From NCBI GenBank assembly GCA_016211945.1, contig JACRHV010000003.1, positions 69,631 through 133,630 of the forward strand: a stretch of 64,000 nt of DNA, written 5' to 3'. The notes under the pieces were generated by a model. It worked only from the letters and a program-made list of their open reading frames with translations, searched no databases and was not told where the DNA came from. The translations under genes and the position numbers were made by a program. Each line of letters begins with the position of its first letter. The first letter of the stretch is position 1. The stretch comes from Minisyncoccota bacterium (GTDB taxonomy: Bacteria > Patescibacteriota > Microgenomatia > UBA1400 > UBA12028). This document shows positions 1 through 54,988 of this stretch, piece after piece.

Positions 1-491
1 TCAAGAAAATGTTTTAACCCATTCGTCGCTTTATTCATTGCCTCGACCGCCGGCATCTCATTTTTCTTCGTCTCCCCACTCGTTGGCTGCACCCAAATCT
101 GTACGCCATATATGGTACCGAGATATATGGGTTCACCCATTGCGAGTGACCCATCTCCGTTTGTTACGTATTGCGCGAACCATTTGTACAGTGGAACTTC
201 ACGTGTTTGTGGAAAAAGATCGCTAAAATCATCGACCCCTTTATATTGAGCATTGCTTAAAAATTCTATAAGCGATGCGAGCATCATTGCTTTCCGCGTA
301 CTACTTGAGCAGAAAATGAGTGCTTTAGGTGGTTTTTTGTCGCCCCAAAACTCATCTTTTGCGCCGGCTTCTTCAGTCAGTTGGAGTAGTGCCTCATCAT
401 TTCCCTCAATTCCCACGTAATACTTCAAATATGTGGCAAGCGCTCCCCGCCCATCTAAACTTGGATCTATTTCTAATGGTTTTTTTGACAT
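1..491 (-). CDS. hypothetical protein, partial (start codon at 489..491 on minus strand; 3' end runs off window start)
   Basis: Minus-strand frame is open from ATG at 491 to position 1 with no stop (MSKKPLEIDPSLDGRGALATYLKYY...). Not in ORF track because it has no stop inside the window. No recognisable motif. Confidence 0.35.
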   Translation of the reverse strand, partial: MSKKPLEIDPSLDGRGALATYLKYYVGIEGNDEALLQLTEEAGAKDEFWGDKKPPKALIFCSSSTRKAMMLASLIEFLSNAQYKGVDDFSDLFPQTREVPLYKWFAQYVTNGDGSLAMGEPIYLGTIYGVQIWVQPTSGETKKNEMPAVEAMNKATNGLKHFL

Positions 492-665: not shown

Positions 666-2294
666 TTATGCGGGATCCTGGGTATACTCAAGACCTTTAC
701 GAATCGACTCCTCTGCCTTCTGCAGTTCAAGTCCTACATACATCATGTGACCCGGTTCGAGCATATAGTTCCAGTCGGTAATCTGCCATGCAACTTCCTG
801 TGCGGTTCTTCCCTCAAAAATCTTAATTGCAGGACCACCGTCCGGCTCAAACAATGTTGCACGGATCAATTTTCCATGTTTTTTGGGCATGGTTGGCAGT
901 GTTTTTGCAACTGCGTATGGAATTGACTGCGTTTCATACCGTTGTGAAAACATCGGCCACACATACGCCTCCTCCTCCCGAATCACCTCCACGATCACGT
1001 TGCCCCGCTTGTCGAATCCAAAATGGACGGCTGGAGAATATCCCAACTCAGACTCGTAATGCTCCATCAGTAAGTTGTCCACTAATCCAAAATCGTCTGC
1101 GTACATATGTGCGGAGTGTGTAATCATGGTGAGCGGCCCCATCTCCATTCCTGCAGAGTCGGCGATATCTTTCTGAAGCTTGCGCAATGCGAATGTGTTG
1201 CGAGGCCATCCATGTACCATATCCTGTGAACGGAAATGTGCAGTAAAGAAAAATTTATTATCTTGTACCGAGCCAAGCACCATCACTAAACACGGGGTAT
1301 CCCCTTTGTTCACCTCGTTCCAATCGCGCTTGGGATCCATGGTGGTCGCCACCATCTTCTTACTGTCCGGCCGATTTTTTAATAAATCCTTCATTGCAGC
1401 GATCTGATCCACACCCAAGTCCACCCGCATCCGTTTCCCATAGTTATACGCAACTCCCGGAATTTGGCGGCTGGTCAAAATCTCTGCGTAATACGCCTCC
1501 AGTTCCACCCGAGTAAACGGTAGATATTCCGGAAAATAAATGTCGTCGGGATTTTCATCCGTGATCACCGCAGTTAAGTTCAAAATTTCTTTGAGTGAGT
1601 TGTCTTTGCTGTACCGCGTGTGTTTTGGTCGGCCATATTTCTGAATTTCATTGAGTAGTTTCAGCCATGTTTTTGCTACCTTTGGCGCGGAAACACGGAA
1701 GCCTGTTTGTTCGGATGGCATCGTTCGCACCGTCACTTCCGACTGCGGAAACGTCCGTGTTTTTGCTGAGAAAGGTTCCATTGGGGTTGCGCTGAGTTCT
1801 CGAACCTTCTCTACAAAATCTGTTGCTTTCCTCCCGCGCATATCCACCACATCCACAACCTTGCGAAATTCTTCAACCACATCGTTTGACAACTCTTTTT
1901 CAATCTCTCCGCGTGCCGCAACAATTTTTCTTGTCTCTCCCTCGACCCCTTTCATCTTCAGCATCAACAACGAGTGGCCGGAAAGCGACATCTCCGCACC
2001 CCATATCACAATCACGCGAATGTGGGGATTCGCAAAAATATTGCGAATCATTGCATTGATTCCCTGCGCGCTATACAGATTTCCAATCGTGTTGTAGTCC
2101 ACATTTTTGAGTAGCGTTTCTACAACTTGCCGTTCTGTCCACAAACAGCACACCGCAACGTGATGTCGCGGGTTTTTCACTTTAAGAATATCTTTATAAA
2201 AAAGAGGCCAATGAGAGAGATCAATCGAGGTATTTTTGTTCGATGTCTTCACTTGGTTGAGTGATTTCTTTGCTTTTGGCATAGGAACGAGCAT
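666..2294 (-). CDS. thymidylate synthase (ThyA / dCMP-hydroxymethylase fold) family protein with ~250-aa N-terminal extension of unknown function
   Basis: C-terminal third carries ThyA-family signatures: TPCL (catalytic Cys region, PCH in ThyA), FRSQD..G.P.N (QRS.D..LG.PFN in ThyA), HSAHMY (GDAHIY in ThyA). N-terminal ~250 aa has no resemblance to DHFR or ThyA. Confidence 0.6.
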   Translation of the reverse strand: MLVPMPKAKKSLNQVKTSNKNTSIDLSHWPLFYKDILKVKNPRHHVAVCCLWTERQVVETLLKNVDYNTIGNLYSAQGINAMIRNIFANPHIRVIVIWGAEMSLSGHSLLMLKMKGVEGETRKIVAARGEIEKELSNDVVEEFRKVVDVVDMRGRKATDFVEKVRELSATPMEPFSAKTRTFPQSEVTVRTMPSEQTGFRVSAPKVAKTWLKLLNEIQKYGRPKHTRYSKDNSLKEILNLTAVITDENPDDIYFPEYLPFTRVELEAYYAEILTSRQIPGVAYNYGKRMRVDLGVDQIAAMKDLLKNRPDSKKMVATTMDPKRDWNEVNKGDTPCLVMVLGSVQDNKFFFTAHFRSQDMVHGWPRNTFALRKLQKDIADSAGMEMGPLTMITHSAHMYADDFGLVDNLLMEHYESELGYSPAVHFGFDKRGNVIVEVIREEEAYVWPMFSQRYETQSIPYAVAKTLPTMPKKHGKLIRATLFEPDGGPAIKIFEGRTAQEVAWQITDWNYMLEPGHMMYVGLELQKAEESIRKGLEYTQDPA

Positions 2295-4874: not shown

Positions 4875-4887
4875 AGGCCTTAGTGTA

Positions 4888-9950: not shown

Positions 9951-11985
9951 GTGGTACTATGGTACCATGATTCGGAAGTTCACCGTCTTTTTTTTCCACG
10001 CACTTTTTCTCACTGTTCCGCTTTTTTTTACCTCAATTAATGATGAGTTGTTCGAGTTTAACAAGATCGTTCTGACGTACGCGTATACGACGATTATCGT
10101 GGGATTATGGGTAACGCGCATGATCGTTGAAAAAAAAGTGCTATGGAAAAAAACACCATTTGATATCCCTCTTGCGTTGTTTTTTATCTCACAACTCCTC
10201 TCAACTATCACCTCGATCCACCCTCATACCTCAATTTTTGGATACTATTCTCGATTCAATGGCGGGCTATTGTCCGTCATGAGTTACATTGCCCTGTACT
10301 ATGCCTTCGTGAATACCGTTGAGAAAAAGGAGGTTGGTTCGTTCATAAAAACGCTTTTGTACGCAGGCATGCTTTCAGCGTTCTACGCGTTCATTGAACA
10401 CTTTGGTCATTCTCCAAGTTGCTTCTTCATCACGGGAAAGTTCGATGTTGGGTGTTGGATTCAGGATGTGCAGACGCGTGTGTTCGGGACATTTGGACAG
10501 CCAAACTGGCTCGCGGCGTACCTCATTATGCTCATCCCGCTCGCGGTTTCAGAAACGATTCGCGCGTTTGAGATAAAAAAATCGTGGTACGCTTGGTTTC
10601 TTTTTGGCGTCGTAGGCCTTTTCTTCTCTACGCTTCTTTTCACACAGTCCAGATCTGGATTATTGGGCCTTGCGATGGGCAGCTTTGTATATGGAGTGCT
10701 CTTGATAAAACAGTGGTTCACTGACATTCAAACACGGTCATCTTTTCGACCGCTTCTTTTTCTTGGTCTCTGCTGTGCTTTTCTCGTTTTTCTTTTTGGA
10801 TCACCACTTACTCCTTCAGCAAAACAAATGCTTCAAAAGTTTCGTGCAAAACCGGCAACTGCAACGCCTTCGGCTCCTTCTCAACAACCCGCCGGAACGC
10901 AGTTGGAGGTTGGAGGAACAGAGTCCGGCGCTATTCGCGCTATTGTATGGAAGGGGGCGCTTGCGGTGTGGAAACGATATCCATTGCTTGGGTCTGGTGT
11001 TGAAACGTTTGCATACAGCTATTACAAAGACAGACCCATTGAGCACAACCTCGTGTCTGAGTGGGATTTTCTGTATAACAAGGCACACAACGAGTTTTTG
11101 AACTATTTAGCTACAACGGGAGCGGTGGGGTTAGGTACCTATCTTCTTTTGATTGGATGGGTCTATTGGTGGACGCTTCGTCACTCCGCCGATTCCCCAT
11201 ATTCCATAGCTGCATGGCTTGCGGGATACACCGCTCTTCACATCTCAAACTTCTTTGGTTTCTCTACCGTTGTGGTATCAACATTGTTTTTTCTCGTTCC
11301 AGCATTTGTCTCTGTAGAGTTCTCCATTTCTGATGCTCTGTCATCATTACCCCCATGGGAACGAAAGAAAAAGATACGGGCAAAACAAGAGCCTGTTTCC
11401 CTCTATCAGTGGAGTGTTGTTGGTCTTGTGAGCATTGGTGTGCTGTGGACGCTTCTTATTGTTGTGAACATGTGGCGAGCTGACTACGCGTTTGCGCAGG
11501 GAAAACAACTCCGCACGGCCAAACAAGGAGAGCAAGCGATAGAAAAATTGAAGGAGGCGATTAATCTTGGACCAAACGAGGCAGTATTTCACGAGGAACT
11601 CTCGCTTACCGCTTCTGAACTTTCCGCAGCCGCATATGCACAACAACAGGCAACGCCTGCTGCGGACTTAGGAGAGTTGGCGATTCGTGAATCGGATAAA
11701 ATGTTGGAATTGAACTCGCGTCATTTGAATTTTTATAAGTCCCGCGCACGTATGCTCATCACACTCTCTCAAATTGCGCCAGAGTTGATGGGTGAGGCTT
11801 TACGTGTTCTGGATCGGGCACAAGCACTTGCCCCTACCGACGCAAAACTCACATATAATAGGGCGTTGCTGACCGAGCAAGGCGGGAAAAAAGACGAGGC
11901 TATTACGTTGATGAAACAAGCCATTGATATGAAGCCCAACTACGAAGTTGCAAAGGAACAACTAAAGAGAATTGAGGGAAGGTAA
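9949..11985 (+). CDS. O-antigen ligase (Wzy_C) family polytopic membrane protein with C-terminal TPR repeats
   Basis: About 12 TM segments. O-antigen-ligase signature NKAHNEFLNYLATTGAVGLG. C-terminal ~170 aa are TPR-like (AIEKLKEAINLGPNEAVF...MKQAIDMKPNYEVAKEQL). Confidence 0.6.
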   Translation: MWYYGTMIRKFTVFFFHALFLTVPLFFTSINDELFEFNKIVLTYAYTTIIVGLWVTRMIVEKKVLWKKTPFDIPLALFFISQLLSTITSIHPHTSIFGYYSRFNGGLLSVMSYIALYYAFVNTVEKKEVGSFIKTLLYAGMLSAFYAFIEHFGHSPSCFFITGKFDVGCWIQDVQTRVFGTFGQPNWLAAYLIMLIPLAVSETIRAFEIKKSWYAWFLFGVVGLFFSTLLFTQSRSGLLGLAMGSFVYGVLLIKQWFTDIQTRSSFRPLLFLGLCCAFLVFLFGSPLTPSAKQMLQKFRAKPATATPSAPSQQPAGTQLEVGGTESGAIRAIVWKGALAVWKRYPLLGSGVETFAYSYYKDRPIEHNLVSEWDFLYNKAHNEFLNYLATTGAVGLGTYLLLIGWVYWWTLRHSADSPYSIAAWLAGYTALHISNFFGFSTVVVSTLFFLVPAFVSVEFSISDALSSLPPWERKKKIRAKQEPVSLYQWSVVGLVSIGVLWTLLIVVNMWRADYAFAQGKQLRTAKQGEQAIEKLKEAINLGPNEAVFHEELSLTASELSAAAYAQQQATPAADLGELAIRESDKMLELNSRHLNFYKSRARMLITLSQIAPELMGEALRVLDRAQALAPTDAKLTYNRALLTEQGGKKDEAITLMKQAIDMKPNYEVAKEQLKRIEGR

Positions 11986-11992
11986 AATCGCC

Positions 11993-12598
11993 ATGAAAAA
12001 ACCCATTCTTACTGTCCCCAACCCCATGTTACGTACAAAAAGTGTTGATCTGGACCTCAAAAAAGACTTGCCTCTCATTCAGTCATACATCAAGGATCTT
12101 GAAGAAACACTCGGAAAAAAGGCCAACCCCAAAGGCGTGGGCCTTTCCGCACCGCAAATCGGGAAAAATCTGCGGATGTTTTCGTCCTTCCTCCCCCCCT
12201 CCAGCAACGCCAAGGATCAGGATCGTCCAACAGAGGAAGAAAAAGACGAGGCCGTACTTGCAACCTACCTCAATCCCGTCATCGTAAACACTTCTAAAGA
12301 CAAAACATTCGGACCCAATCCGGAAGATCCTATCTTGGAAGGCTGCCTATCTATCCCACAACTCTACGGCCCCGTTCCTCGATTCTCATGGGTTACATTG
12401 CACTTTTGGACACCAAAACTTGAGGAAAAAGAAGTTGTGTTTCATGGTTTTTTTGCTCGAGTTATTCAACACGAGTTCGACCACCTTGAGGGAATCTTGT
12501 TCGTTGATTATATTCGCGAACTCAACCTCCCTCTCTTTGAACAGCAAAACAAGAAAATGATCGAGATCGATCCTACTATTATTAACGCGCTAGGTTAA
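11993..12598 (+). CDS. def: peptide deformylase
   Basis: Motifs GVGLSAPQIG, EGCLSIP and HEFDHLEG. Contains a low-complexity insertion. ATG at 11993 is preferred over the TTG at 11972; an RBS GAGGGAAGG lies upstream. Confidence 0.85.
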   Translation: MKKPILTVPNPMLRTKSVDLDLKKDLPLIQSYIKDLEETLGKKANPKGVGLSAPQIGKNLRMFSSFLPPSSNAKDQDRPTEEEKDEAVLATYLNPVIVNTSKDKTFGPNPEDPILEGCLSIPQLYGPVPRFSWVTLHFWTPKLEEKEVVFHGFFARVIQHEFDHLEGILFVDYIRELNLPLFEQQNKKMIEIDPTIINALG

Positions 12599-12602
12599 CG
12601 AT

Positions 12603-13511
12603 ATGCAGATACTTCTTGCTGGAACACCCTCCACTACCGTCGCCGTTGCACGCACACTTGTTTCAGCAAACCATACTATTATAGGTGTCCTCTGCCCCTT
12701 CCCGAAGCCTATTGGGCGTAAGCAGATTGTGACACCGTGTGCGCTGGAAATGTGGGCTCGGAATTTTTCTGTTCCGATTTTTCATGTTGATTCGAGTGTG
12801 TTGGCAGATCACAAGAACTTGGCCGAGGTGCCGAAGGCCGATGTTTTCATTGTCGCTGATTTTGGTTTCCTCATTCCACCTTGGCTTCTCTCGTATTGCC
12901 AGCATGGTGCACTTAACCTCCACCCCTCCTTGTTGCCGAGGTGGCGCGGCGCGACTCCGGTACCGTTTACGCTCTTGTTTGGCGACCGCGAAACCGGCAT
13001 CAGTATTATCCAGATGAATGAAAAGTTTGATATGGGCGCCGTCGTCGCACAACGGAAGGTTGAAATTCTTGAGGATGATACGACACCAACGCTTTTGGAT
13101 CGATGTTTTAGCGTTGGAGCACAGCTGCTTCTCGAGGTTTTGCTCGAATATGTTGGGGGAGCGTTGAAGCCTATTCCCCAACCCATATCCTCGCCAACTC
13201 CCATGACACGAAAGTTCACAAAGGAAGACGGATGTGTGCCATATGAGGCCTTGGTAGCCGCGAGACAAGGATTATCATTCGATTCCTCGCCGATCAAGAT
13301 TTTAGCCGAGTACGGCCTTCCCCAAATCCCGGTTGGGATATACCAGATGTGCCGCGGGTTGGCCCCGTGGCCTGGTGTGTGGGCTACCCTACCGAATGGC
13401 AAGCGGCTAAAGGTGTTGTCAAGTACCTTTGATGGAAAACGATGCACTCCCAATCTCGTTCAACTCGAGGGAAAAACGGCGGAAAAATACATGGGTTTTG
13501 ATAGGCTATAA
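12603..13511 (+). CDS. fmt: methionyl-tRNA formyltransferase
   Basis: N-terminal formyltransferase fold with NLHPSLLPRWRGATP. Sits directly after def, the conserved def-fmt pair. Confidence 0.85.
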   Translation: MQILLAGTPSTTVAVARTLVSANHTIIGVLCPFPKPIGRKQIVTPCALEMWARNFSVPIFHVDSSVLADHKNLAEVPKADVFIVADFGFLIPPWLLSYCQHGALNLHPSLLPRWRGATPVPFTLLFGDRETGISIIQMNEKFDMGAVVAQRKVEILEDDTTPTLLDRCFSVGAQLLLEVLLEYVGGALKPIPQPISSPTPMTRKFTKEDGCVPYEALVAARQGLSFDSSPIKILAEYGLPQIPVGIYQMCRGLAPWPGVWATLPNGKRLKVLSSTFDGKRCTPNLVQLEGKTAEKYMGFDRL

Positions 13512-13518
13512 TTGACGT

Positions 13519-14805
13519 ATTGCCTCACGTAATAATGTAACGGAACTCCATATTCGTTGCCTCATCATTTTTGTAACGATGCGTATGCATAAGTTTTGTT
13601 TGAAGTGCATGGATATTTCTTTGAAGATCCATAGGATTTAATCCTTCATAAACATGACGAAGTGTCTGCTGTTGATTTGGCTTGAGCATATCAGACTCTC
13701 GAAGTCTTTGGTATGGGGTTCGTGCTTGATCATAGGTCTTCATCACTTTTGATCCTACACGTACTTTCTTCAGCAGTTTCTGTGAGGGTTGAAAGAAGTT
13801 CACATACACCTCCACACACTTTAAAAGCTCTTGAATGATCTTAAGTTGTTCCTCTGTTTCATATCTGCCATATCCAACAAAGTTGCGTAGGACGGTGTAG
13901 TTTTTTTGCTCCACGTAGCAGTTTTCATTCTTTCTTCCTGCTCTGATTCTGGTAAATGTAATATGATTGTTTTCACAAAACCTCAGCATAATATCGTTGA
14001 TGAACTCACTCCCATTGTCTGAATCAATTCCAAGGATGGGGAAAGGGAGTCGTGTTTGGATTCTTTGTACTGCTTCATGGATTCCAAACTGTCCTTTTCC
14101 CATCACTGCTTCAAGCCCAATCCACTGGAGACAGACGTCTGTAAAGTTGAGTCCATATACATAGTGTCCTTGAGGATTTTCACCACAAAATGCGACTCCA
14201 TCAATCTCAAAGAATCCTGGTTTCTTGTCTTCCCAATCCGCAAAAGTTCTGATCTGAATCTGATTTTTTAACAAGGTTCCTGGCTTCGTCGTTGATCTTC
14301 CTTTCAACGCATAGCGCTTCTTTGTTGCAGCAAGCATACGATCAATCGTGGAGCGGCTCATGGTGAGTAGCTTTCTTCGTATGGGGGCAGTGAGTTTGAG
14401 TTCTTTGTTCTTTTCAAGGATGGGAATGAGCTCGGGGAGAAAAGGGTGGAGCCTCTTCCCACAAATCCATCCTGCTGCCAACCAACATGTCCGTAAAGGA
14501 AGAAAGACTGCGTAATCATACTGATGTGTACGCACTTGCGTTCTTTTCTTTTTCCTTCCATCACACGTGGGGTGTATTTGACCCAATACACGTCGTGCGT
14601 AACTTCTGTTGTATCCACAACTTTCAACAAACTCATCAAGTATGATCGTTTTCTCTGTCTTAGATGCGCGATGATATCGCATGCGTATGGTTGTTGTGAG
14701 TGATGCTTTTTCTCTCATAGTTAACATATGTACCCCTTATGTTTTTGGAGTACATTTTCCTATGAGGCAACGAATCGTGTTCCGTTACATTTCTGATGAG
14801 GCAAT
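13519..14805. mobile_element. insertion sequence (~1.29 kb) with ~44-47 bp imperfect terminal inverted repeats
   Basis: Left end 13519..13565 ATTGCCTCACGTAATAATGTAACGGAACTCCATATTCGTTGCCTCAT. Reverse complement of right end 14762..14805 is ATTGCCTCATCAGAAATGTAACGGAACACGATTCGTTGCCTCAT. Encloses the single transposase ORF. No clear target-site duplication seen. Confidence 0.6.
13525..14727 (-). CDS. DDE-type (rve/integrase-core) transposase
   Basis: N-terminal HTH-like region, then a D..D..E triad: FEIDGV, GIDSDNGSEF, YVEQKN. Family (IS481-like versus ISNCY-like) cannot be decided by eye. Confidence 0.75.
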   Translation of the reverse strand: MLTMREKASLTTTIRMRYHRASKTEKTIILDEFVESCGYNRSYARRVLGQIHPTCDGRKKKRTQVRTHQYDYAVFLPLRTCWLAAGWICGKRLHPFLPELIPILEKNKELKLTAPIRRKLLTMSRSTIDRMLAATKKRYALKGRSTTKPGTLLKNQIQIRTFADWEDKKPGFFEIDGVAFCGENPQGHYVYGLNFTDVCLQWIGLEAVMGKGQFGIHEAVQRIQTRLPFPILGIDSDNGSEFINDIMLRFCENNHITFTRIRAGRKNENCYVEQKNYTVLRNFVGYGRYETEEQLKIIQELLKCVEVYVNFFQPSQKLLKKVRVGSKVMKTYDQARTPYQRLRESDMLKPNQQQTLRHVYEGLNPMDLQRNIHALQTKLMHTHRYKNDEATNMEFRYIIT

Positions 14806-16097: not shown

Positions 16098-17113
16098 AGA
16101 CTTGTAGCGAAATAAGATTCGTCATTCCTCTTACCCATAGACCACATCATCTCGTAAAGTTGTAGAGTGCAGCAAGGGTCACGAATGGTGTATGTGCAGA
16201 AGCAATGGTGTTTCTGTAGGTGTGCGCATGGATATTGAAGTGTTTCAACGAGGCAAACACATGTTCCACTCGGACACGGATCTGTGCAATGGTTCTGTTG
16301 GTCTTCTTTTGTCTGGACGTCAACGCTTTCCCTTTTGGTTTGCGCGTGGGATAAACCAAGGCAATAGTGGAATTAATCCGCTCTCCTCCTTGGTAGCCAT
16401 TGTCACTCATGCCGAAAGCTCCGGGTGGGGCACGGAGGAGCATGCCATCATCTTCGGCAAGTTTCTTGTCATGCCGTTTCCCCTCCACAGTCTTGGACAC
16501 GGCAAGGATCTTCATGGTTCTGGGGTTGACGAGAATCTGGTTCTTGACCGTATGCATCTTTTTCTTCCCAGAATAGTAGAACTGTTGGATGTCTGTGTTT
16601 TCGGGACGCTGAATCCGTCGTTCGGTCGCATCGACAAGAAACTCTTGCAAGTCGGGACACACGGTCAAGAGCTGTCCCATATGGGTGACCTTGCGTATGG
16701 GGAGCACAAGCGCGTGGTGGAGGGCCTGCTGAAGGATGGGCTTCATAAACTCCACCCATCGCCAGACATTCATCTTGTCCAATCCAAAGAGCACTTGGGC
16801 AAGCCGAAACGTGGGATACACCTTATAGTACAAGAGAATAAGCAAGACCAAGGATGCATCTGTTCCAAAGACACGTTTCCGTCCACCTCCAGCAGTACGC
16901 CATCTTCCTGGATGGATCGCTCGTGTTTTAAACACACAAAACAAGATGGGATGGACTGTGGCAACCACACGGTCAAACTGCTCTTTGGAAATCCCCAGCA
17001 CAGCTGGAAAACATTCTGGATGTTTGAGAAGATACTGGTACATAGGCAGGACTCCTTGATACGGGTACTGCCTATGATTGTATCCAGAAGCATGCTTATT
17101 TCGCTACAAGTCT
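16098..17113. mobile_element. IS4/IS5-family-like insertion sequence (~1.0 kb) with perfect 19-bp terminal inverted repeats
   Basis: Left IR 16098..16116 is AGACTTGTAGCGAAATAAG. Right IR 17095..17113 is CTTATTTCGCTACAAGTCT, its exact reverse complement. TTT immediately flanks both ends and is a possible 3-bp target duplication. Confidence 0.65.
16147..17043 (-). CDS. IS4/IS5-family DDE transposase (DDE_Tnp_1-like)
   Basis: 298 aa. DATERRIQRP (D), MSDNGYQGG (D), RIRVEHVFASLKHF (E in the Y..R...E....K context typical of IS5-family transposases). Confidence 0.75.
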   Translation of the reverse strand: MYQYLLKHPECFPAVLGISKEQFDRVVATVHPILFCVFKTRAIHPGRWRTAGGGRKRVFGTDASLVLLILLYYKVYPTFRLAQVLFGLDKMNVWRWVEFMKPILQQALHHALVLPIRKVTHMGQLLTVCPDLQEFLVDATERRIQRPENTDIQQFYYSGKKKMHTVKNQILVNPRTMKILAVSKTVEGKRHDKKLAEDDGMLLRAPPGAFGMSDNGYQGGERINSTIALVYPTRKPKGKALTSRQKKTNRTIAQIRVRVEHVFASLKHFNIHAHTYRNTIASAHTPFVTLAALYNFTR

Positions 17114-23424: not shown

Positions 23425-24432
23425 TTATCTCTTCGTTTTCCCAAATCTTCTCAGACAGGATTGAACAATTCCCCAGATATAGTCCTCAAACGACATTCCC
23501 ACCGCGTGATGTGCAATAGGGATTGCCGACTCATCGTCATCCCCTAACCCAGGGTTACAGTTTGCCTCCAATACAAAGACCCTATCCCTCCGCACACGTA
23601 TATCAGCACGCATATAGTCACGATAATCGAGTTCTGCAAAAATTTTTGTACACACATCCTCTATTCCTTTTCTTAATTGTTTCGACATGTTCTTTGGTAA
23701 ACCAATGTCCGACATTTGATAGTCAGGATGCTTCTCATCCCACCGGCTCTCAAAGGTCAAATATGAATCTTTGCCCCTATATTTAAACAGTATTTCTACG
23801 GGAGGTAACACAACGGGTTTTCCATCCTTTTCTATCACTGCTACCTGAAACTCGCGACCCTCAATAAATTCTTCGGCAAAAACCGGCTCATCAAACCGTC
23901 GCATTTGTTCACGAACTTGTTTCTGCAATGCGCGAGCAGAATCAACAACCATGTCCCGTGATAAACCAATACTGCAATGCTGCAAACTTGGTTTTATGAT
24001 AATAGGATATTTAAAATCTTTTCGAATTGGTTCGTTGCCACGTATAAATGTTTGCCATCGCGGTGTTGGGATCTTTGCGCGATCAAATGCTCGCTTCATT
24101 AATACTTTGTCGGAAATCAAATGAAAATTGTGCGTTGTCGCTCCTGTAAATGGGATGCCAGATTGTTCAATGAGTAAACATGCAAACAATGCATACGGCA
24201 AATCCTTTCCCGTCCACTCGATGAGATTAAAAATGCAATCTGCTTGAATGTTTCGAATAATTTTTTCGATATGCTGCGCGTCAACGGGAACGAAAAATGG
24301 CCGTGTTTTTTTCTTTTTCAATGCATTGAAAATTTCAATCGCTGAATCTTTTGTGGTGTCATCCGTTATTGAAAACGATGTTTTTGCATAATTGTGCGTT
24401 GTTTTGCTATAAACGATCGCAATATTCAACAT
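23425..24432 (-). CDS. D-alanine--D-alanine ligase family ATP-grasp protein
   Basis: Ddl-like N-domain (MLNIAIVYS start), ATP-grasp fold with IIKPSLQHCSIGLS, EEFIEGREFQVAV and LEANCNPGL. Start set at the internal Met. Confidence 0.65.
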   Translation of the reverse strand: MLNIAIVYSKTTHNYAKTSFSITDDTTKDSAIEIFNALKKKKTRPFFVPVDAQHIEKIIRNIQADCIFNLIEWTGKDLPYALFACLLIEQSGIPFTGATTHNFHLISDKVLMKRAFDRAKIPTPRWQTFIRGNEPIRKDFKYPIIIKPSLQHCSIGLSRDMVVDSARALQKQVREQMRRFDEPVFAEEFIEGREFQVAVIEKDGKPVVLPPVEILFKYRGKDSYLTFESRWDEKHPDYQMSDIGLPKNMSKQLRKGIEDVCTKIFAELDYRDYMRADIRVRRDRVFVLEANCNPGLGDDDESAIPIAHHAVGMSFEDYIWGIVQSCLRRFGKTKR

Positions 24433-24582
24433 ATAAAATATTTCCATTTTCCAGATCAAAATTTTTCTTTTTTATATATACATATTGACATTTTTTTTAT
24501 TTCCTATTCTATTAGTATAGAGAAAGAAAAAAAGAAAATGAATAGATCAATGCATTTGAGGATATTTTTCTTCACATAATAC

Positions 24583-25602
24583 TTGCCCATGAACACTTCA
24601 CATTCGTTACAAATCACCGTTATTTACAATCCCGAGGACAAAACACAAGCTGAAGAAATTGCTGTGACCGATGAGGGAATTGAACAAACTGCGGAAACAA
24701 TTGCCGACTCACTTCGTCTGTGTGGCTATGAAACACAGACATACGCCGTTTCTGAAAAGAATCTCTACTATTTGAAGCATAAGAAAACAGATGCTTTTTT
24801 TAATGTCTGTGAGGGCGCAGACATCCAAATGAAGGTTATTAAGCAACTAGAAAAATACGGCAAGGTTTTTACAGGTCCCGGTCCGCAAGTAATGAAGTTA
24901 ACCACGAATAAAATTGCATCAAAGAAAGTTTTTGAGAATATAGGAATTTCAACGCCTAAGTGGCAATTTTTTGTCACAGGAAAAGAAAAAATCGATCCCG
25001 ACCTCCACTTCCCACTCATTGTAAAACCGACAAACGAAGATTGTAGTATCGGAATCACGCAAGGTTCGATTGCGCTAAACGAAGAATCATTGTATGAACA
25101 AATTCAGCGCGTGTGCGAAACATATAAACACGGTGCGCTTGTTGAAGAGTTTATTTTGGGTAGAGAACTTCACTGCACCGTTGTTGGAAATGGTGATGAG
25201 GCTGTCGCGTTGCCGCTCGCAGAACTTCAGTTTACTGATGGACATACCGACGACCAGTTTATTTTTGATTACGAAGCAAAATGGATAGAAAGTTCGCCGC
25301 GAAATAACTATACGTTCATCTCACCCGCTCCAAGTGTTGACGACTCTATTACGCGCATTATCCAAAGCGAAGCAAAGCGCGCGTTTTTGGCCTTGAACAT
25401 GAAAGACTATGCACGATTCGATATTCGGTACAATATAGAGTCGAAGATGTGGTATTTTTTGGAAGCAAATGCAAATCCTTCTATTCAAAACGCCACAAAT
25501 GAAGCAACGACCATTTCTGCGAATGCGTCCGGTATGCGATATCATGAGTTCATTCAATCTATTGTGGAATCATGTACACAGCGTCATTTGTGCCAGGTGT
25601 AA
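24583..25602 (+). CDS. D-alanine--D-alanine ligase family ATP-grasp protein (paralog of 23425..24432)
   Basis: Same architecture: LIVKPTNEDCSIGIT, EEFILGRELHCTV, LEANANPS. Transcribed divergently from its paralog across a 150-bp AT-rich spacer. Confidence 0.65.
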   Translation: MPMNTSHSLQITVIYNPEDKTQAEEIAVTDEGIEQTAETIADSLRLCGYETQTYAVSEKNLYYLKHKKTDAFFNVCEGADIQMKVIKQLEKYGKVFTGPGPQVMKLTTNKIASKKVFENIGISTPKWQFFVTGKEKIDPDLHFPLIVKPTNEDCSIGITQGSIALNEESLYEQIQRVCETYKHGALVEEFILGRELHCTVVGNGDEAVALPLAELQFTDGHTDDQFIFDYEAKWIESSPRNNYTFISPAPSVDDSITRIIQSEAKRAFLALNMKDYARFDIRYNIESKMWYFLEANANPSIQNATNEATTISANASGMRYHEFIQSIVESCTQRHLCQV

Positions 25603-50044: not shown

Positions 50045-50695
50045 ATGTTCACTGCCCAATCATTCGCCGTTGTTGGAGCTATCCTCATAAGTTATATCTG
50101 GGTTCGCACTCCAGAACTTGCGCCATATTCACTTCAGCTTACCGCAGGCCTCGTCCTTGCGTACATCATGATGAAGCGTGTAGCAAAAACACATATCTTT
50201 CATATCGCTCCGTCATCTACTACAGCTGAGGTGGGTGTGTTTACTACCGCATTGTTTATGCTCATTGGGTATACAGGCGGCGTCACCTCAATATTCCTTC
50301 CACTGCTCTATCTCCTCCTCTTTATCGGCGTCCTCTCACTCCACACCACAACCATTATTCTCTTTGAGTTTTGCATTCCACTGTACTTGTGGGCACTCGG
50401 ACCGGTGCCAATGACACAACATCAACTCGCAACACTTCTTTCCTTCCCCATTCTTCTCCCCCTCTTGGTGTTTGCGCGTAAGCAATACACAACCGCACAA
50501 CAAGAGAAAAAAGTAGAGGAAAAACTCGCAGATCAAACATTCTCTGCCGCACTGTTTCTTTCAACATTTCTGAAACCAAAACTTCAGCATATTCTTGAAC
50601 TTTCTAACTATCCTGACCACAATAAACGAGGCATTCAGAAACAGCTTTCCCTAACGATAGAGGAACTCGACGATGTTCTCAAAGAAACAGAGTAA
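50045..50695 (+). CDS. hypothetical membrane protein
   Basis: About 6 TM N-terminal half, soluble C-terminal tail. Overlaps the start of the surface-protein cluster. Confidence 0.4.
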   Translation: MFTAQSFAVVGAILISYIWVRTPELAPYSLQLTAGLVLAYIMMKRVAKTHIFHIAPSSTTAEVGVFTTALFMLIGYTGGVTSIFLPLLYLLLFIGVLSLHTTTIILFEFCIPLYLWALGPVPMTQHQLATLLSFPILLPLLVFARKQYTTAQQEKKVEEKLADQTFSAALFLSTFLKPKLQHILELSNYPDHNKRGIQKQLSLTIEELDDVLKETE

Positions 50696-51425
50696 TCGAA
50701 CGGTGGTTGGTCGAGGGATCGGCATTGTACTCGGTCTCATCTTTTTTGTTTTCTTTCTCCCCAAGGCATCCGCAAACATGTCATCGAACAGTTTTATTAT
50801 TCAGTTCAACAATCTCAACATGACATCCGGATCAAAAACAAGTAGTTCGTATAAGGTGACCGATACTGTCGGCCAAAACGCACCGGGAAAGTACGGAACG
50901 ACGGGGTACATTGTGAAAGCGGGGTTCCAGTACATCTATACCATCGGTAATTTTTCATTTTCTATTTCAAATACGATGATTAATTTTGGATTGCTCACGC
51001 CAAACACCTTTGCCACCGGCACAACAACACTCACTGTTTCCGCAAAAGGCGCCGGAGGATATACCGTAACCACTTATGAAAACTACCCGCTCAAAAAAAT
51101 CGGAACCTCGGCGACAATCGCGGATACGACATGCAACGCGGGGACATGCACAGAGGGCACTGCCGGAGTATGGACCGACGCAACAAAACCAGGATTTGGA
51201 TACAACATGACCGGATCAGACATCCCTGCCGCCTTTGTCGACGCAACATACTTCAAGCAGTTTGCGAACTATTCGCAAAACGAGCCCCCGCAAACTATCA
51301 TGAGTAACGCCGGAGTTGTAAAAAATCGACAAGCGACGGTGACGTATAAAGTCGCGGTGTCCGGAAATCAAACGGCGGGAAACTACGAGAACAACATTAC
51401 ATACATTGCAACACCGGGATACTAG
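50673..51425 (+). CDS. secreted beta-rich surface protein (WxL-like domain candidate), paralogous to C-terminus of 52438..53871
   Basis: Signal peptide ...LPKASA. S/T/G-rich beta sequence. Shared C-terminal block YENYPLKKIGTSATIA...GFGYNMTG...SQNEPPQTI...GNYENNITYIATPGY, versus YELKKMGTSTTIA...GFGYGLNY...SNSEPAQTI...GDYENNITYTATATF in the larger paralog. Confidence 0.5.
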   Translation: MFSKKQSNRTVVGRGIGIVLGLIFFVFFLPKASANMSSNSFIIQFNNLNMTSGSKTSSSYKVTDTVGQNAPGKYGTTGYIVKAGFQYIYTIGNFSFSISNTMINFGLLTPNTFATGTTTLTVSAKGAGGYTVTTYENYPLKKIGTSATIADTTCNAGTCTEGTAGVWTDATKPGFGYNMTGSDIPAAFVDATYFKQFANYSQNEPPQTIMSNAGVVKNRQATVTYKVAVSGNQTAGNYENNITYIATPGY

Positions 51426-51428
51426 CGT

Positions 51429-52418
51429 ATGAAAAAAATAATGTTTTTTACCCTAGTCGTATCTATACTCCTTTTTCCAAAGTCTTTGTCTGCGCAAGAC
51501 CAACAAAAAACATCCCTTTCTATTTCACCACCGCTTTCCGAGATCGTGATTCAACCGGGGAAGTCGGTAACGCAGGCGTTTAACATCACCAATGAGGGGT
51601 CTGTTAATCTTGAGGTCATTCCAACGGTAGTCCCGTTTGCGCCGCATCCGGAAACTGGTGAGCCTGTTCTTTTGCTCAATTCCACACGGTTTCCCTTTGC
51701 GACACTGCAAAATCTGGATAAAGCATTAGATAAGCCGTTTCTTCTGAAAGCAAAGCAGTCCGACCAACTCGTGCTCCGCATCGCCATTCCTGAAAAAGAA
51801 AAAGAGAAAGATTATTACGTCACACTCCTTCTTCAGACAAAACCGTCAGGCCTCACACAACTCAACGAAACGGGTTCTATTTCACAAGCGTATCTTGGTG
51901 TCCATCTCCTTGTCTCGGTTTCAAAATCCGGTGAGGATAAAGGAAATCTCACAATACACCAGTTTAAGTCGGCAAAGTTCCTTGATACGTTCTCGGATAT
52001 CTCTCCAAAACTTTTCGTCAAGAACAACGGAACGACATTCACGAAAGCACACGGTGAAATCAAGATCATTTCGCTGACCGGAGAGATCATAAAACTGTTT
52101 CCCATTCTCCCGGAAAATGTGTTGTCCGGCGGAGTGCGCGAACTCCACACCTCGCTTCCAGATCCGGAGGACGCAAAAAGTGCTATACCCGCACCTTTCA
52201 CATACAAACCTCTATTTCTTCTTGGATCATACACCGTAACGGCACGCGTGTTTGCGGAAAACCAAATAGCGGAAGAGGTGACTATTCAAGTATTTGCGTT
52301 TCCGTTTTCTTTGGTAGCGTTTATTATTTCACTCTACTTTACGCGACATGTTATTGTGTCTGTGAGAGAAAAACGCGAAACGAAGGCGAAAGTTGTTGAC
52401 AGAATATCAAAAGAATGA
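51429..52418 (+). CDS. CscA/DUF916-like cell-surface protein with C-terminal TM anchor
   Basis: Signal peptide (MKKIMFFTLVVSILLFPKSLSA), beta-sandwich start SISPPLSEIVIQPGKSVTQAFNITNEG, C-terminal TM plus basic tail (LVAFIISLYFTRHVIVSVREKRETKAK). Confidence 0.5.
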   Translation: MKKIMFFTLVVSILLFPKSLSAQDQQKTSLSISPPLSEIVIQPGKSVTQAFNITNEGSVNLEVIPTVVPFAPHPETGEPVLLLNSTRFPFATLQNLDKALDKPFLLKAKQSDQLVLRIAIPEKEKEKDYYVTLLLQTKPSGLTQLNETGSISQAYLGVHLLVSVSKSGEDKGNLTIHQFKSAKFLDTFSDISPKLFVKNNGTTFTKAHGEIKIISLTGEIIKLFPILPENVLSGGVRELHTSLPDPEDAKSAIPAPFTYKPLFLLGSYTVTARVFAENQIAEEVTIQVFAFPFSLVAFIISLYFTRHVIVSVREKRETKAKVVDRISKE

Positions 52419-52437
52419 CCTAAATAGCGATGAACAT

Positions 52438-53871
52438 ATGAAAAACCGATGGGTGGTGAAGTTTTTTTTGCTTGCGTGCTTTGTCGTGTTTCTTGTGGTG
52501 CCCGCTCATCTTCAACAAACGCGTTCGGCAAACCTCACTTCCGTATCCGACACGCTTTCAAGCTCCCACCTCTCCTTCTATGGATTGATGGGATCCGGGA
52601 ATACCGTTGGTGAAACACTCATTCTCATCAACACCACAACCGCCCCCTCAACCAGCTCAAGCCAGCTCGCATCGCCATCTGCCGGAACGGTAAAGATCGG
52701 AAGTAATATTTATAACTTGAGTGGCACCATGCCAAATAATGATCAGAGTAAATTTAGTATCTCCAGTGGTCTAACCTCTGGTGATCAAACCGCGGGTAAT
52801 GCAATCATCGCAACACAGTCAGCCAGTCATACCGTTCGCTTCTCTACTGCAACCGCCGTTCCAAGTGGTTCGTTCCGCGTCCTCATTCAGGCAACAACAA
52901 ACTCAGGAAGTTCGAATGACGGTATTCCAGACGGTGACGGATTTGATTTTGGCGCATCTGCACCAACCGTAACCTGTCCAACCGACAACTCGTATTACGA
53001 CTTTGTGACAGGGACAGCAACGGCGCAGGCGGTCACGATAAACTCGGTAAAGTATCACGTGTTTGAGTGCCGCTACTCCGGAACAGGCCAGGCAAGCGCG
53101 AGCTTCGCCTCCAACCCTATTACTGTCACCTCACTCATCAACCCTGCGCCAAAAAGCGGCCATGCTGTTGGGACAAACGACGCCTACAACATCATCGTGC
53201 AGAACATGGACTACACCTACACCATGGTTGATCAAACCGCTCTGCAGGTTGGAGTCATCGAGTCTGTCCGTGTGTCCGCTACCGTAGCGCCGCAAATTAC
53301 CTTCCGTATTGCCGGTCTTCCCTCAGGAAATACCTCCGCCTGCGGGACCGCAACAGACGTGACCACAACCCCAACCACGGTTCCTTTTGGCCAAGTGTCC
53401 ATCACCGCGTTTATGCATGCGGGCCAGGCACTTGATGTTTCTACCAACGCTATTGGCGGGTATGCGGTAACAACACAGGCAAACTACGAACTGAAAAAAA
53501 TGGGAACTTCCACTACTATAGCAGGTGCGACTGGAAACGGTGGAAATGTGACCTACGGCGCAAAGGGGCGATGGGACTCCACAACGTATAAAGGGTTTGG
53601 GTATGGGTTGAACTACATCAGTGCAATTTCCGGATCAGGAACTGCGGCATTTGACTACGCAGATACCGATGGGAACTGTTCCGGCGGAACATTCTGTGCA
53701 AAACAATTCCCAGACCTTTCAAACAGCGAGCCCGCGCAAACCATCTTTTCATCCTCCACGGTTGCAGACACAGAGAACGTCAATGTGTGTTACAAGATCG
53801 TCATCAGCAATGTGCAGGCCGCCGGCGACTACGAAAATAACATTACCTATACCGCGACAGCGACGTTTTAA
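52438..53871 (+). CDS. large secreted beta-rich surface protein (WxL-like candidate)
   Basis: Signal peptide MKNRWVVKFFLLACFVVFLVVPAHL. Long S/T/G/N-rich region. C-terminal ~200 aa homologous to the 250-aa protein upstream. Confidence 0.5.
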   Translation: MKNRWVVKFFLLACFVVFLVVPAHLQQTRSANLTSVSDTLSSSHLSFYGLMGSGNTVGETLILINTTTAPSTSSSQLASPSAGTVKIGSNIYNLSGTMPNNDQSKFSISSGLTSGDQTAGNAIIATQSASHTVRFSTATAVPSGSFRVLIQATTNSGSSNDGIPDGDGFDFGASAPTVTCPTDNSYYDFVTGTATAQAVTINSVKYHVFECRYSGTGQASASFASNPITVTSLINPAPKSGHAVGTNDAYNIIVQNMDYTYTMVDQTALQVGVIESVRVSATVAPQITFRIAGLPSGNTSACGTATDVTTTPTTVPFGQVSITAFMHAGQALDVSTNAIGGYAVTTQANYELKKMGTSTTIAGATGNGGNVTYGAKGRWDSTTYKGFGYGLNYISAISGSGTAAFDYADTDGNCSGGTFCAKQFPDLSNSEPAQTIFSSSTVADTENVNVCYKIVISNVQAAGDYENNITYTATATF

Positions 53872-53882
53872 GGAGTTGTGAT

Positions 53883-54938: not shown

Positions 54939-54988
54939 AGGTATTCTCTACCCTGCTTTTGTGGCGTTTCTGATACACTGGATGTGGT

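Follow-up and report, generated by a model that had tools for sequence, protein, structure and literature searches.

Near one end of the 64-kb stretch of DNA that we analyzed (the window), an open reading frame on the minus strand (positions 666 to 2294) runs from an ATG to a stop codon (666 to 668) and encodes 542 amino acids, as an earlier note on this DNA had described. The product is identical to that of a 542-amino-acid open reading frame in a contig of a public assembly; the NCBI version of the protein has 538 amino acids and is annotated as "hypothetical protein HZA34_00495, Candidatus Pacebacteria." Given the open reading frame list, the Pfam matches, the homologs, and the identical public product, we identify the whole frame as a three-domain thymidylate synthase (TS). 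In the matching contig, the gene is part of the string topA-dcd-TS-x-tmk-AA_kinase (pyrH-like)-SHMT (glyA).

On the upstream side, and on the same strand, dcd (2327 to 2881), a member of the dCTP deaminase family (TIGR02274, E = 5e-60; PF22769, E = 2e-50), is separated from the TS gene by 32 nucleotides. The earlier note was right that dcd is adjacent but placed it downstream. It corresponds to a 184-amino-acid gene in the matching contig; the mechanical open reading frame reaches 2971 by way of an upstream GTG. Next comes topA, encoding topoisomerase I (2895 to 4910, minus strand, from the open reading frame list and the matching contig), which is syntenic in 30 of 60 related loci. Downstream of the TS gene, positions 1 to 491 of the minus strand hold the 5' part of gene x, which is cut by the window edge; this is the truncated gene that the note had mentioned. 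In the matching contig, gene x encodes 345 amino acids and is followed by tmk, the pyrH-like AA_kinase, and SHMT. It has no match in Pfam, was found at only one other locus (L036), and shows no conservation past the nearest relative.

Across the 60 related loci, tmk follows the TS gene in the same orientation in 35, and the other neighbors of the TS gene include RNR (17), dcd (13), SHMT (9), and FolD (8); dNK also occurs beside it. Two of the other arrangements are RNR-TS-kinase-HAD-tmk, with SHMT and FolD, and dcd-dCMP deaminase-TS-dNK-TK-tmk. These neighbors, together with the string in the matching contig, argue that the gene encodes a housekeeping TS and not an enzyme of DNA hypermodification. 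The window also contains fmt, which shows that the cell uses folate.

The protein has three Pfam domains (MtrA, Thymidylat_synt, and DUF4346), each of which scores above its gathering threshold. An MtrA-like, Rossmann-type domain (residues 24 to 180; positions 1755 to 2225, minus strand) is supported by PF04208, a profile comparison to PDB entry 5laa, Foldseek, and column counts. It is followed by a linker with a conserved PSExxGF motif and a short, archaeal-type ThyA core (residues 186 to 418; 1041 to 1739, minus strand), as indicated by TIGR03283, PF00303, alignments with HMMs and hhalign, and Foldseek. The last domain is DUF4346 (PF14251; residues 422 to 542; 669 to 1031, minus strand), which also rests on column counts. 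Thus, TS is the central domain and not the C-terminal third of the protein, as had been proposed; the N-terminal extension has about 185 amino acids rather than 250; residues ~200 to 285, which had been counted as extension, belong to the TS fold and form its divergent N-terminal portion; and a two-part layout misses the 120-amino-acid DUF4346 domain. Residue positions in all three domains were checked by translation. An AF2 model of the fusion has a pLDDT of 94 and a pTM of 0.90, and the latter suggests that the domains are held in a fixed arrangement.

Sequence and context show that the central domain is a ThyA core of the short, methanogen type. It belongs to the ThyA superfamily, as the earlier note had recognized: PF00303 matches with 49.1 bits (cutoff, 24.3). 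TIGR03283 aligns to residues 202 to 402 (E = 3e-37; model positions 4 to 198 of 201) with a score of 127.9 bits, which is below the equivalog cutoff of 174.55 bits, so we view the protein as a divergent relative and not as an equivalog. A KSB1 member with the same three domains clears this cutoff (190.4 bits). The TS core of another family member (P0124) is 36 to 42% identical to the standalone TS of Methanobrevibacter, and the core of the window protein aligns with the same proteins. Foldseek matched structures with the TS fold at a probability of 1.0; the best match was to 9iqu (TM score, 0.83; rmsd, 2.8 Å), and TM scores to canonical TS were 0.6 to 0.66.

The motifs that had been quoted for this protein are all present in the core: TPCL at residues 333 to 336, RSQDMVHGWPRN at 355 to 366, and SAHMY at 394 to 398. 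Residue numbers for the E. coli enzyme are those of the ThyA sequence used in the alignments. Pro334-Cys335 is the Pro-Cys motif, and Cys335 (codon at 1290 to 1292, minus strand, checked by translation) matches the catalytic C146. The dUMP-binding residues R166, S167, N177, H207, Y209, and Y94 correspond to Arg355, Ser356, Asn366, His396, Tyr398, and Tyr285 in both HMM and hhalign alignments, and each is conserved in at least 126 of 140 family members. In particular, Cys335 and Tyr285 are conserved in 137 of the 140, Arg355 and Asn366 in 136, and Asp358 (E. coli D169) in 134. At the R126'/R127' pair, which comes from the partner subunit, the window protein has Lys312-Lys313 where Arg-Arg is usual among its relatives. 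The lysines are a conservative change and are invariant within the CPR clade; in the wider family, 91/140 and 76/140 members have Arg at the two positions.

On the folate side, the core keeps Asp358 but lacks the elements that clamp the cofactor in canonical TS. There is no W80/W83 segment, and the core terminates one helix after SAHMY, without the C-terminal tail of ~50 residues. L172 is replaced by His361, F176 by Arg365, and L143 by Asp332. The L143-equivalent position is polar across the whole family. Standalone methanogen TS has Glu there, so an acidic residue looks like a feature of the clade. Still, with Asp332 and without the W80/W83 shield, the last chemical step could differ from that of classical ThyA.

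These same features might suggest a pyrimidine hydroxymethylase or another C5-modifying enzyme, which would add water instead of hydride and form 5-hydroxymethyl-dUMP for modified DNA. The earlier note raised this possibility. An acidic residue at the L143 position has been tied to hydroxymethylases (PMC13326640), the W80/W83 shield is absent, and the closest structure, 9iqu, is a phage dCMP hydroxylase. However, the acidic residue is shared with standalone methanogen TS, and both Asn366 and Asp358 are TS-type residues: at the N177 position, the dCMP enzymes carry Asp, and at the D169 position, the 5-hydroxy-dCMP synthases carry Asn (PMC13326640). Asn366 is of the dUMP type. The gene lies on the chromosome of a small CPR genome, and dozens of cellular genomes share its synteny with tmk, RNR, dcd, and SHMT; its context contains no glycosyl- or other modification genes. 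No viral relatives of the flanking domains were found in PHROGs or BFVD. Furthermore, no other TS (ThyX or canonical ThyA) was seen in the 64-kb window of this one genome or in the flanks of the gene in the related loci. A hydroxymethylase is therefore very unlikely, and the enzyme almost certainly makes thymidylate, a DNA building block.

The N-terminal domain had been described as matching neither dihydrofolate reductase (DHFR) nor ThyA. The first part of this holds: Pfam and NCBIfam gave no match to PF00186 or any other DHFR model at E ≤ 1, and the superpositions of DHFR-TS that Foldseek reported cover the TS part only, so we rejected homology to DHFR. The second part holds for residues 1 to 185 but not for residues ~200 to 285, which align to the N-terminal segment of ThyA. 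In part, this is the outcome that the note had named as a refutation. The extension is not without relatives either. PF04208 matches residues 28 to 169 (E = 3e-12; 46.8 bits, threshold 25), the family profile matches 5laa with E = 4e-25, and Foldseek aligns the domain to 5l8x and 5laa with TM scores of 0.73 to 0.77.

Since MtrA is a cobalamin-binding protein and the homology and shared fold are clear, we considered whether the N-terminal domain might still bind a cobamide and take part in methyl transfer. The family still has the residues around the nucleotide tail: conservation extends over the tail/phosphate pocket (GNLYSxxGIN..RN), in which T53, G57, and N64 of MtrA are kept as S75, G78, and N85. 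Against this, ThyA chemistry runs on a methylene bridge and not a methyl cation. In MtrA, His84 is the lower axial ligand of the cobalt, Glu54 is its hydrogen-bond partner, and both go with the GAIPF/YxEN meander (PMC4915002), yet in the profile alignment to 5laa, His84, Glu54, and two residues of the meander lie in insertions that only MtrA has: the family has lost the cobalt ligands through precise deletions, along with part of the meander. His107 of the window protein aligns to Gln88 of MtrA instead and is His in just 11 of 140 members. Neither the window nor the related loci contain mtr genes, and the domain is followed by TS rather than by a transmembrane helix. We rejected a corrinoid role as highly improbable.

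Relative to MtrA, the family has gained Trp52, which is present in all 140 members. A conserved NPxIR..L.CG strand is shared with MtrA. Two Gly/Ser-rich loops that lie along the C-terminal edge of the Rossmann sheet, GNLYSxxG and GxDxSGSG, are also conserved.

The C-terminal domain matches PF14251 at residues 429 to 540 (E = 2e-12; 48.3 bits, threshold 29.6), as did all 45 domains that we sampled from the family, and it contains a clade-specific insertion of ~35 amino acids. Asp428 (139/140), His516 (137/140), Gly431, Glu523, and Gln539-Asp540 are conserved; Trp52, Asp428, and His516 are as conserved as the catalytic residues. A profile search of the PDB for relatives of this domain returned only chance-level matches to L14e (E ~0.7). 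Among NCBIfam models, DUF4346 also follows a DHPS-like pterin enzyme (TIGR00284) and MtrA-like domains (NF002128). In the literature that we searched, we found no paper on the function of DUF4346, including in TIGR00284 and NF002128 proteins, nor any on the three-domain fusion or the role of its added domains.

The three-domain architecture is widespread. It is common to 477 close homologs, it was found in 417 clusters at 50% identity (E < 1e-30), and nearly all of the best 150 of 4,292 matches have the same domain order. It occurs in Microgenomates/CPR bacteria, Chloroflexota, KSB1, Abditibacteriota, and DPANN archaea, and much of the Microgenomates branch carries it. (Database names for the family were assigned automatically.) Several variants bear on its function. 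In some Woesearchaeota, both flanking domains are retained but the TS between them is a dead remnant, and these TS-dead forms adjoin dCMP deaminase and an AAA_18 kinase. A member from the Nanoarchaeota is fused to dCMP deaminase. In tandem forms, DUF4346 is duplicated along with TS, there is one N-terminal domain per two TS-DUF4346 units, and the catalytic Cys of the second TS is replaced by Ser.

The neighbors and the variants could be read as signs of regulation: in this account, the flanking domains bind a nucleotide effector (such as dTTP, dCTP, or dUMP) or assemble the oligomer, tuning TS activity in a minimal genome without touching folate, and the TS-dead forms are regulatory pseudoenzymes. 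The family conserves the phosphate pocket that it inherited from MtrA, the neighbors are themselves allosterically regulated (RNR with an ATP-cone, and dCMP deaminase), the TS-dead forms lie beside dCMP deaminase and the AAA_18 kinase, and the tandem forms have two TS units per N-terminal domain, one with Ser in place of Cys. But where DUF4346 and MtrA-like domains are known with other partners, those are pterin rather than nucleotide enzymes, and the near-invariance of Trp52, Asp428, and His516, at the level of catalytic residues, would be unusual for a purely regulatory site. We consider a regulatory or scaffolding role to be quite unlikely.

A different possibility is that the protein has a built-in reductase, in which the former nucleotide-tail pocket of the MtrA-like domain would hold NAD(P)H or a flavin as hydride carrier and DUF4346 would hold a pterin. 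It might re-reduce the dihydrofolate that TS makes, as a nonhomologous analog of protozoan DHFR-TS, or, like ThyX, it might pass hydride to the exocyclic methylene intermediate. In both cases, the enzyme would not depend on FolA. TS and DHPS-like enzymes both release 7,8-dihydropterin products, so both of DUF4346's fusion partners are producers of these compounds. The Gly/Ser-rich loops at the edge of the Rossmann sheet would suit such a role, the module is retained where TS is no longer catalytic, and a nonclassical hydride step is hinted at by the acidic L143 equivalent and the absence of the Trp shield. We found no DHFR or ThyX in the window or in the ~795 kb that flank the gene in the 60 loci, even though SHMT and FolD recur there; a motif search and a by-eye pass over small unclustered open reading frames gave nothing further. 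The DHFR search used phmmer with two seed sequences, so the absence of DHFR pertains to the window and flanks as seen with those seeds. More broadly, folA was detected in only 54.8% of 4,581 CPR genomes (PMC11974145), and ThyA normally requires FolA (PMC9931769). There is also precedent for the use of flavin by enzymes with the TS fold (9iqu and 9iqc; PMC13326640).

On the other hand, neither domain matches a recognizable NAD(P)- or FMN-binding family (their weak Pfam matches at E ≤ 10 included none that recurred), the family shares no conserved redox-active Cys or metal motif, and the TS-dead variants would themselves produce no dihydrofolate to reduce. We therefore think that a built-in reductase is unlikely, although more credible than a regulator. 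We would give similarly limited credence to the broader proposal that the MtrA-like domain and DUF4346 together make up a new kind of pterin enzyme that works autonomously, most attractively a dihydrofolate or dihydropterin reductase, or a hydride-delivering partner that frees a TS with the ThyA fold from FolA.

What we slightly favor, at somewhat better than even chances, is a housekeeping thymidylate synthase whose flanking domains form an accessory module that handles folate or another pterin. In this scheme, dUMP would be methylated by the classical route: Cys335 would attack C6 of dUMP, which would be held by Arg355, Ser356, Asn366, His396, Tyr398, Tyr285, and Lys312-Lys313, and Asp358 would contact the pterin. 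Dcd would supply the deoxyuridine nucleotide, tmk would phosphorylate dTMP, and SHMT (glyA) would recharge methylene-tetrahydrofolate. We infer that the MtrA-like domain and DUF4346 act as one conserved module for the cofactor, which may provide the binding surface that the core is missing (the W80/W83 segment, L172, F176, and the C-terminal tail). In favor of one module are the shared domain order, the strong conservation of Trp52, Asp428, and His516, the fixed arrangement in the model, the joint duplication of DUF4346 with TS, the pterin-related and MtrA-like partners of DUF4346, and the pocket residues kept from MtrA. The phosphate/carboxylate pocket derived from MtrA could take the tail of the cofactor, and the Asp/His/Glu/Gln-Asp cluster of DUF4346 could take the pterin-pABA part along with Trp52. 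Binding of folate by the module is a prediction from sequence.

The module probably has an activity of its own, such as binding, retaining, or re-reducing the cofactor, because some archaea have kept it even though their TS is a dead remnant; that it is no more than a lid is unlikely. The same Woesearchaeota argue for a role that is independent of TS, which counts against our favored explanation. Also, if the short core really works alone, as in the standalone methanogen TS, then it does not strictly need a lid. We looked for a partner that might act in trans in methanogens, and we found no MtrA-like or DUF4346 gene beside the standalone TS in the two gene neighborhoods that we examined. As the earlier note surmised, TS is fused to additional, non-DHFR domains in a pyrimidine-deoxynucleotide context, and a second function in the same polypeptide is plausible.

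The usual view is that ThyA and FolA must occur together, with ThyX as the main explanation for life without FolA. In this case, a large and taxonomically broad set of organisms has an enzyme with the ThyA fold and two conserved domains that derive from pterin and one-carbon metabolism, with no DHFR in the DNA examined. Should the module prove to bind, retain, or re-reduce folate, models of thymidylate supply and antifolate sensitivity would change for uncultured organisms that scavenge folate, and DUF4346 and the MtrA homologs without cobalt ligands would have a function. An autonomous pterin enzyme, if that is what the pair is, would likewise assign a function to DUF4346 and to non-corrinoid MtrA homologs, and it would explain ThyA-type synthesis in lineages without a detectable DHFR, the persistence of the module without TS catalysis, and its presence in DHPS-like archaeal proteins. 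If the module is only a lid or a regulator, the gain is a modest one in annotation, from "hypothetical protein" to "thymidylate synthase, three-domain type." In any case, biochemistry has yet to settle which cofactor archaeal-type TS uses (PMC9931769, PMC9012536), and this soluble fusion from bacteria offers a convenient way to approach the question.

Among known systems, methanogen-type TS (TIGR03283, such as Methanobrevibacter ThyA; ~205 to 240 amino acids) has the same short core: both have a WxxL helix start, a KEILN motif, and an acidic residue two before the Pro of the Pro-Cys motif, both lack the W80/W83 segment, and both end just after SAHxY. It differs in being a single domain encoded in a DUF1890-DUF1894-MetE-TS cluster, and the window protein falls under the equivalog cutoff. 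Phage enzymes with the TS fold, namely T4 dCMP hydroxymethylase and the flavin-dependent 5-hydroxy-dCMP synthases (AfhB of HY126, 9iqu, and gp48 of RB69), share the short fold and the acidic L143 position, but they are viral, single-domain proteins with N177D and, in the hydroxylases, D169N (PMC13326640), where the window protein keeps Asn366 and Asp358. The DHFR-TS of protozoa and plants resembles our protein in overall plan, with an N-terminal domain of nucleotide-binding type, a place in the folate cycle, and a total of ~520 amino acids. In contrast, the N-terminal domain here is MtrA-like without PF00186, the Foldseek overlay covers only the TS part (rmsd, ~22 Å), the TS core is archaeal-type and noncanonical, and there is a third domain.

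MtrA itself, the corrinoid subunit of the methyl-H4MPT:coenzyme M methyltransferase, and its cytoplasmic homologs (5laa and 5l8x) are clear homologs of the N-terminal domain with the same Rossmann-type fold, but our domain lacks His84, Glu54, part of the meander, the membrane anchor, and the mtr operon, and it has the invariant Trp52. Finally, the DHPS-like archaeal proteins (TIGR00284) and the 390-amino-acid MtrA-DUF4346 proteins (NF002128) have the same C-terminal domain, and the latter are MtrA-like as well. In those proteins, the partner is a pterin-binding TIM barrel or there is none, whereas here an entire TS core splits the two halves of the module.

The 542-amino-acid protein encoded at 666..2294 on the minus strand (ATG to stop) is very probably a thymidylate synthase (TS): the assignment is well supported by its fold, catalytic residues, uracil-type specificity, fusion partners, and synteny. 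Pfam places three domains in it, all scoring above their gathering thresholds: MtrA (PF04208, residues 28-169), Thymidylat_synt (PF00303, residues 285-411), and PterinBD-DUF4346 (PF14251, residues 429-540). Residues 202-402 align to positions 4-198 of the 201 in NCBIfam's methanogen-type TS model (TIGR03283), or almost the full model. Window coordinates of the domains were checked by translation. An identical 542-aa product is recorded in a public assembly; the NCBI version has 538 amino acids and is named [quoted passage not shown] The earlier note, made from the sequence alone, thought that a TS-fold fusion was worth attention, which was borne out, and the motifs it quoted are present (TPCL at 333-336, RSQDMVHGWPRN at 355-366, and SAHMY at 394-398). 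However, it placed the TS fold at the C-terminal end, while this is the central domain; its unmatched N-terminal extension of 250 residues is really about 185 residues long and matches MtrA; it overlooked the third, C-terminal domain; and its suggestion of DNA hypermodification is not supported.

The three-domain protein is a real and widespread TS variant that is annotated automatically in databases, under names such as "thymidylate synthase," "hypothetical protein," or "DUF4346 domain-containing protein." A close search returned 477 proteins; of the 120 listed, all share the three-domain architecture except for one 446-aa entry without a DUF4346 match. These relatives are 60-100% identical, and the names among the matches listed are Pacebacteria, Microgenomates, Woesebacteria, Cerribacteria, and Patescibacteria. 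When 1.84 billion cluster representatives were searched exhaustively with a profile, 4292 matched (417 at E < 1e-30), and almost every one of the best 150 of the 4292 is 460-530 aa long and keeps this domain order. Names recovered for the matches include those of candidate division KSB1, Nanoarchaeota, and Abditibacteriota. Chisholm-, Beckwith-, Roizman-, Ames-, and Woykebacteria and several Chloroflexota joined the list from a scan of species genomes in GTDB. Our literature search turned up no publication that deals with the fusion or with DUF4346.

To map the TS core, we built a profile from 140 family members and aligned it to E. coli ThyA (E = 4e-25; hhalign probability 99%). Tyr285, Cys335, Arg355, Ser356, Asp358, Asn366, His396, and Tyr398 correspond to E. 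coli Y94, C146, R166, S167, D169, N177, H207, and Y209, and these are kept in 126-137 of the 140 members. Lys312-Lys313 align to R126-R127, and in the wider family, Arg is present in 91/140 at 312 and in 76/140 at 313. Asn at the N177 position indicates a uracil substrate, whereas dCMP enzymes carry Asp there (PMC13326640). An AlphaFold model on a diverse alignment is confident, with a pLDDT of 94 and a pTM of 0.90; one built earlier from 18 close orthologues scored poorly (pLDDT 71). The top PDB match of the TS part is 9iqu, a dCMP hydroxylase from phage HY126 that has a short TS fold (TM 0.83), followed by canonical TS, MilA, and T4 dCMP hydroxymethylase.

The N-terminal domain has the MtrA fold (TM 0.73-0.77 to 5l8x/5laa), and the family profile matches the cobalamin-bound MtrA homologue 5laa across the whole domain (E = 4e-25). 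The cobalt site of MtrA consists of His84 as the lower ligand, Glu54 hydrogen-bonded to His84, and the meander GAIPF/YxEN (Wagner et al., PMC4915002). In the profile alignment to 5laa, all of these elements sit in MtrA-only insertions and so are deleted in the three-domain family. The nearby His107 pairs with MtrA Gln88, and just 11/140 members have His there. Given these deletions and the poor conservation of His107, the sequences make His-on cobalamin binding in the style of MtrA unlikely. MtrA's phosphate/nucleotide-tail loop residues T53, G57, and N64 are kept as Ser75, Gly78, and Asn85, within the domain's best-conserved motif, GNLYSxxGIN..RN. Trp52 is new relative to MtrA and is invariant (140/140).

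DUF4346 begins a few residues past the TS core, with the family consensus DPRGNF...H..P.G...G..A...HAxYLGxELxKAExAL..G..YxQD; the CPR clade has an insertion of about 35 residues in this domain. Asp428 (139/140), His516 (137/140), Gly431 (136/140), Gln539 (132/140), and Glu523 (124/140) are conserved. Neither a PDB profile search nor Pfam at E <= 10 gave further relatives. Among NCBIfam models, DUF4346 is also found at the C-terminus of an archaeal DHPS-like protein (TIGR00284) and, in the 390-aa family NF002128, immediately C-terminal to an MtrA-like domain. MtrA-like and DUF4346 domains thus form a recurring pair (a "module"), whose other partners are pterin enzymes.

Some family members have other architectures. 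In a 733-aa Nanoarchaeota member (P0160/P0271), the three-domain TS is followed at the C-terminus by a dCMP deaminase domain (PF00383), which gives Rosetta-stone support for dUMP supply to TS. P0225 (837 aa) and P0251 (786 aa, Abditibacteriota), from two lineages, have the order N-domain-TS-DUF4346-TS-DUF4346, so TS and DUF4346 duplicate as one unit. In the second TS copy, Ser replaces the catalytic Cys, so the two covalently joined TS units form a pseudo-dimer that has a single active site and is served by one N-domain; in P0251, the D169 position is also Asn, and the His and Tyr of SAHxY are missing. Two Woesearchaeota proteins of 391-399 aa (P0320 and P0321, at L065 10001-11176 and L067 5650-6849) match the family profile in the N-domain (E ~ 1e-48) and DUF4346 (E ~ 1e-33), with only the first TS helix between them; they no longer have the Pro-Cys, RSxD, Asn, and SAHxY motifs. 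These look like pseudo-TS or a stand-alone accessory module, and retention of the module without TS motifs implies a selectable role independent of TS catalysis. Their genes adjoin dCMP deaminase and an AAA_18 kinase.

On a 13-kb public contig that encodes the identical protein, the gene order is mreC-mreD-PBP2-x-dprA-topA-dcd-TS-(345-aa unknown)-tmk-AA_kinase-SHMT. Other members show RNR-x-TS-AAA kinase-HAD-tmk, where SHMT and FolD lie no more than 8 kb away, or dcd-dCMP deaminase-TS-dNK-TK-tmk. Across 60 loci (795 kb in total), we counted tmk downstream on the same strand in 35; RNR in 17 (15 upstream, median gap 333 bp); dNK in 17 (22 copies, 18 downstream and 4 upstream); HAD downstream in 17; dcd in 13 (median gap 177 bp); and SHMT and FolD downstream in 9 and 8, respectively. 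The window also encodes a def-fmt pair (peptide deformylase and a methionyl-tRNA formyltransferase-type protein, 11972..13511, plus strand), so the organism depends on 10-formyl-tetrahydrofolate and uses reduced folates.

The 345-aa protein between the TS gene and tmk (window 1..491, minus strand; full gene at 9092-10129 of locus L068) matches no Pfam family, and the closest relative (L036, 30% identity) was the only other place where it turned up. Its gene is preceded by a 175-nt spacer with a weak promoter-like site (553-525, minus strand) and, by eye, a hairpin with a short T-rich tail at ~585-610 that the terminator scan does not list. Elsewhere in the window are a DDE_Tnp_4/DDE_Tnp_1 transposase (16147..17043, minus strand); a 400-aa ORF without a Pfam match (13525..14727, minus strand), whose DSDNGSEF-type motif resembles an integrase/transposase core; a region of lower GC (0.41) at 14-16 kb; and two divergently oriented, paralogous ATP-grasp genes of the D-Ala-D-Ala-ligase type (23425..24459, minus strand, and 24583..25602, plus strand) within a stretch of low GC (0.38). 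Five or six large Thr/Ser-rich proteins, secreted or membrane-anchored and with no obvious function by eye (50673..56683, plus strand), may form a surface-appendage or adhesin cluster.

What does the flanking module do? From its MtrA ancestry, its DHPS-like partners, the short core's missing folate clamp, and a conserved phosphate/carboxylate pocket with an Asp/His/Glu cluster, we infer a pterin cofactor: the module would handle folate and complete or extend the cofactor site, and it probably has a binding or catalytic activity of its own. The most interesting version of this reading, a built-in reductase or hydride donor that would free the enzyme from FolA, seems unlikely to us. Three observations fit it: no DHFR was found near the gene, both DUF4346 partner enzymes make dihydropterin products, and the residues around the methylene site are non-classical. 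Neither accessory domain, however, has a match among known NAD(P)- or flavin-binding families. With seed sequences as queries, we found no DHFR, ThyX, or second ThyA either in all six frames of the window or in the 60 loci, which cover only the gene's flanks; these absences are suggestive rather than proof. More broadly, folA was detected in 54.8% of 4581 CPR genomes, versus about 80% for glyA and folD (PMC11974145). We consider a regulatory, a hydroxymethylase, or a corrinoid role less probable. As it stands, the protein holds moderate interest, which would become high should the module prove to be a new folate-recycling activity.

The window's TS core is of the archaeal short type, which lacks modern biochemical characterisation (PMC9931769; PMC9012536). 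The core can be aligned with the single-domain TS of Methanobrevibacter and relatives, to which the core of another family member, P0124, is 36-42% identical. In methanogen contigs (L061-L064, genes around 8001-8720), the standalone short Methanobacteriales TS is part of a DUF1890-DUF1894-MetE(core)-TS cluster that is conserved, and in one lineage it lies beside methenyl-H4MPT cyclohydrolase; no MtrA-like or DUF4346 gene is close by in the two neighbourhoods examined. The methanogen enzyme and the window core share the KEILN strand motif, lack an equivalent of the W80/W83 segment, and have an acidic residue at the L143 position (Glu and Asp332, respectively), which is polar across the whole family. 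Both end one helix past SAHxY, so about 50 C-terminal residues of canonical ThyA have no counterpart in the window core. E. coli L172 and F176 are replaced by His361 and Arg365. The nucleotide site is thus classical, but the core is without most of canonical ThyA's folate-clamping elements.
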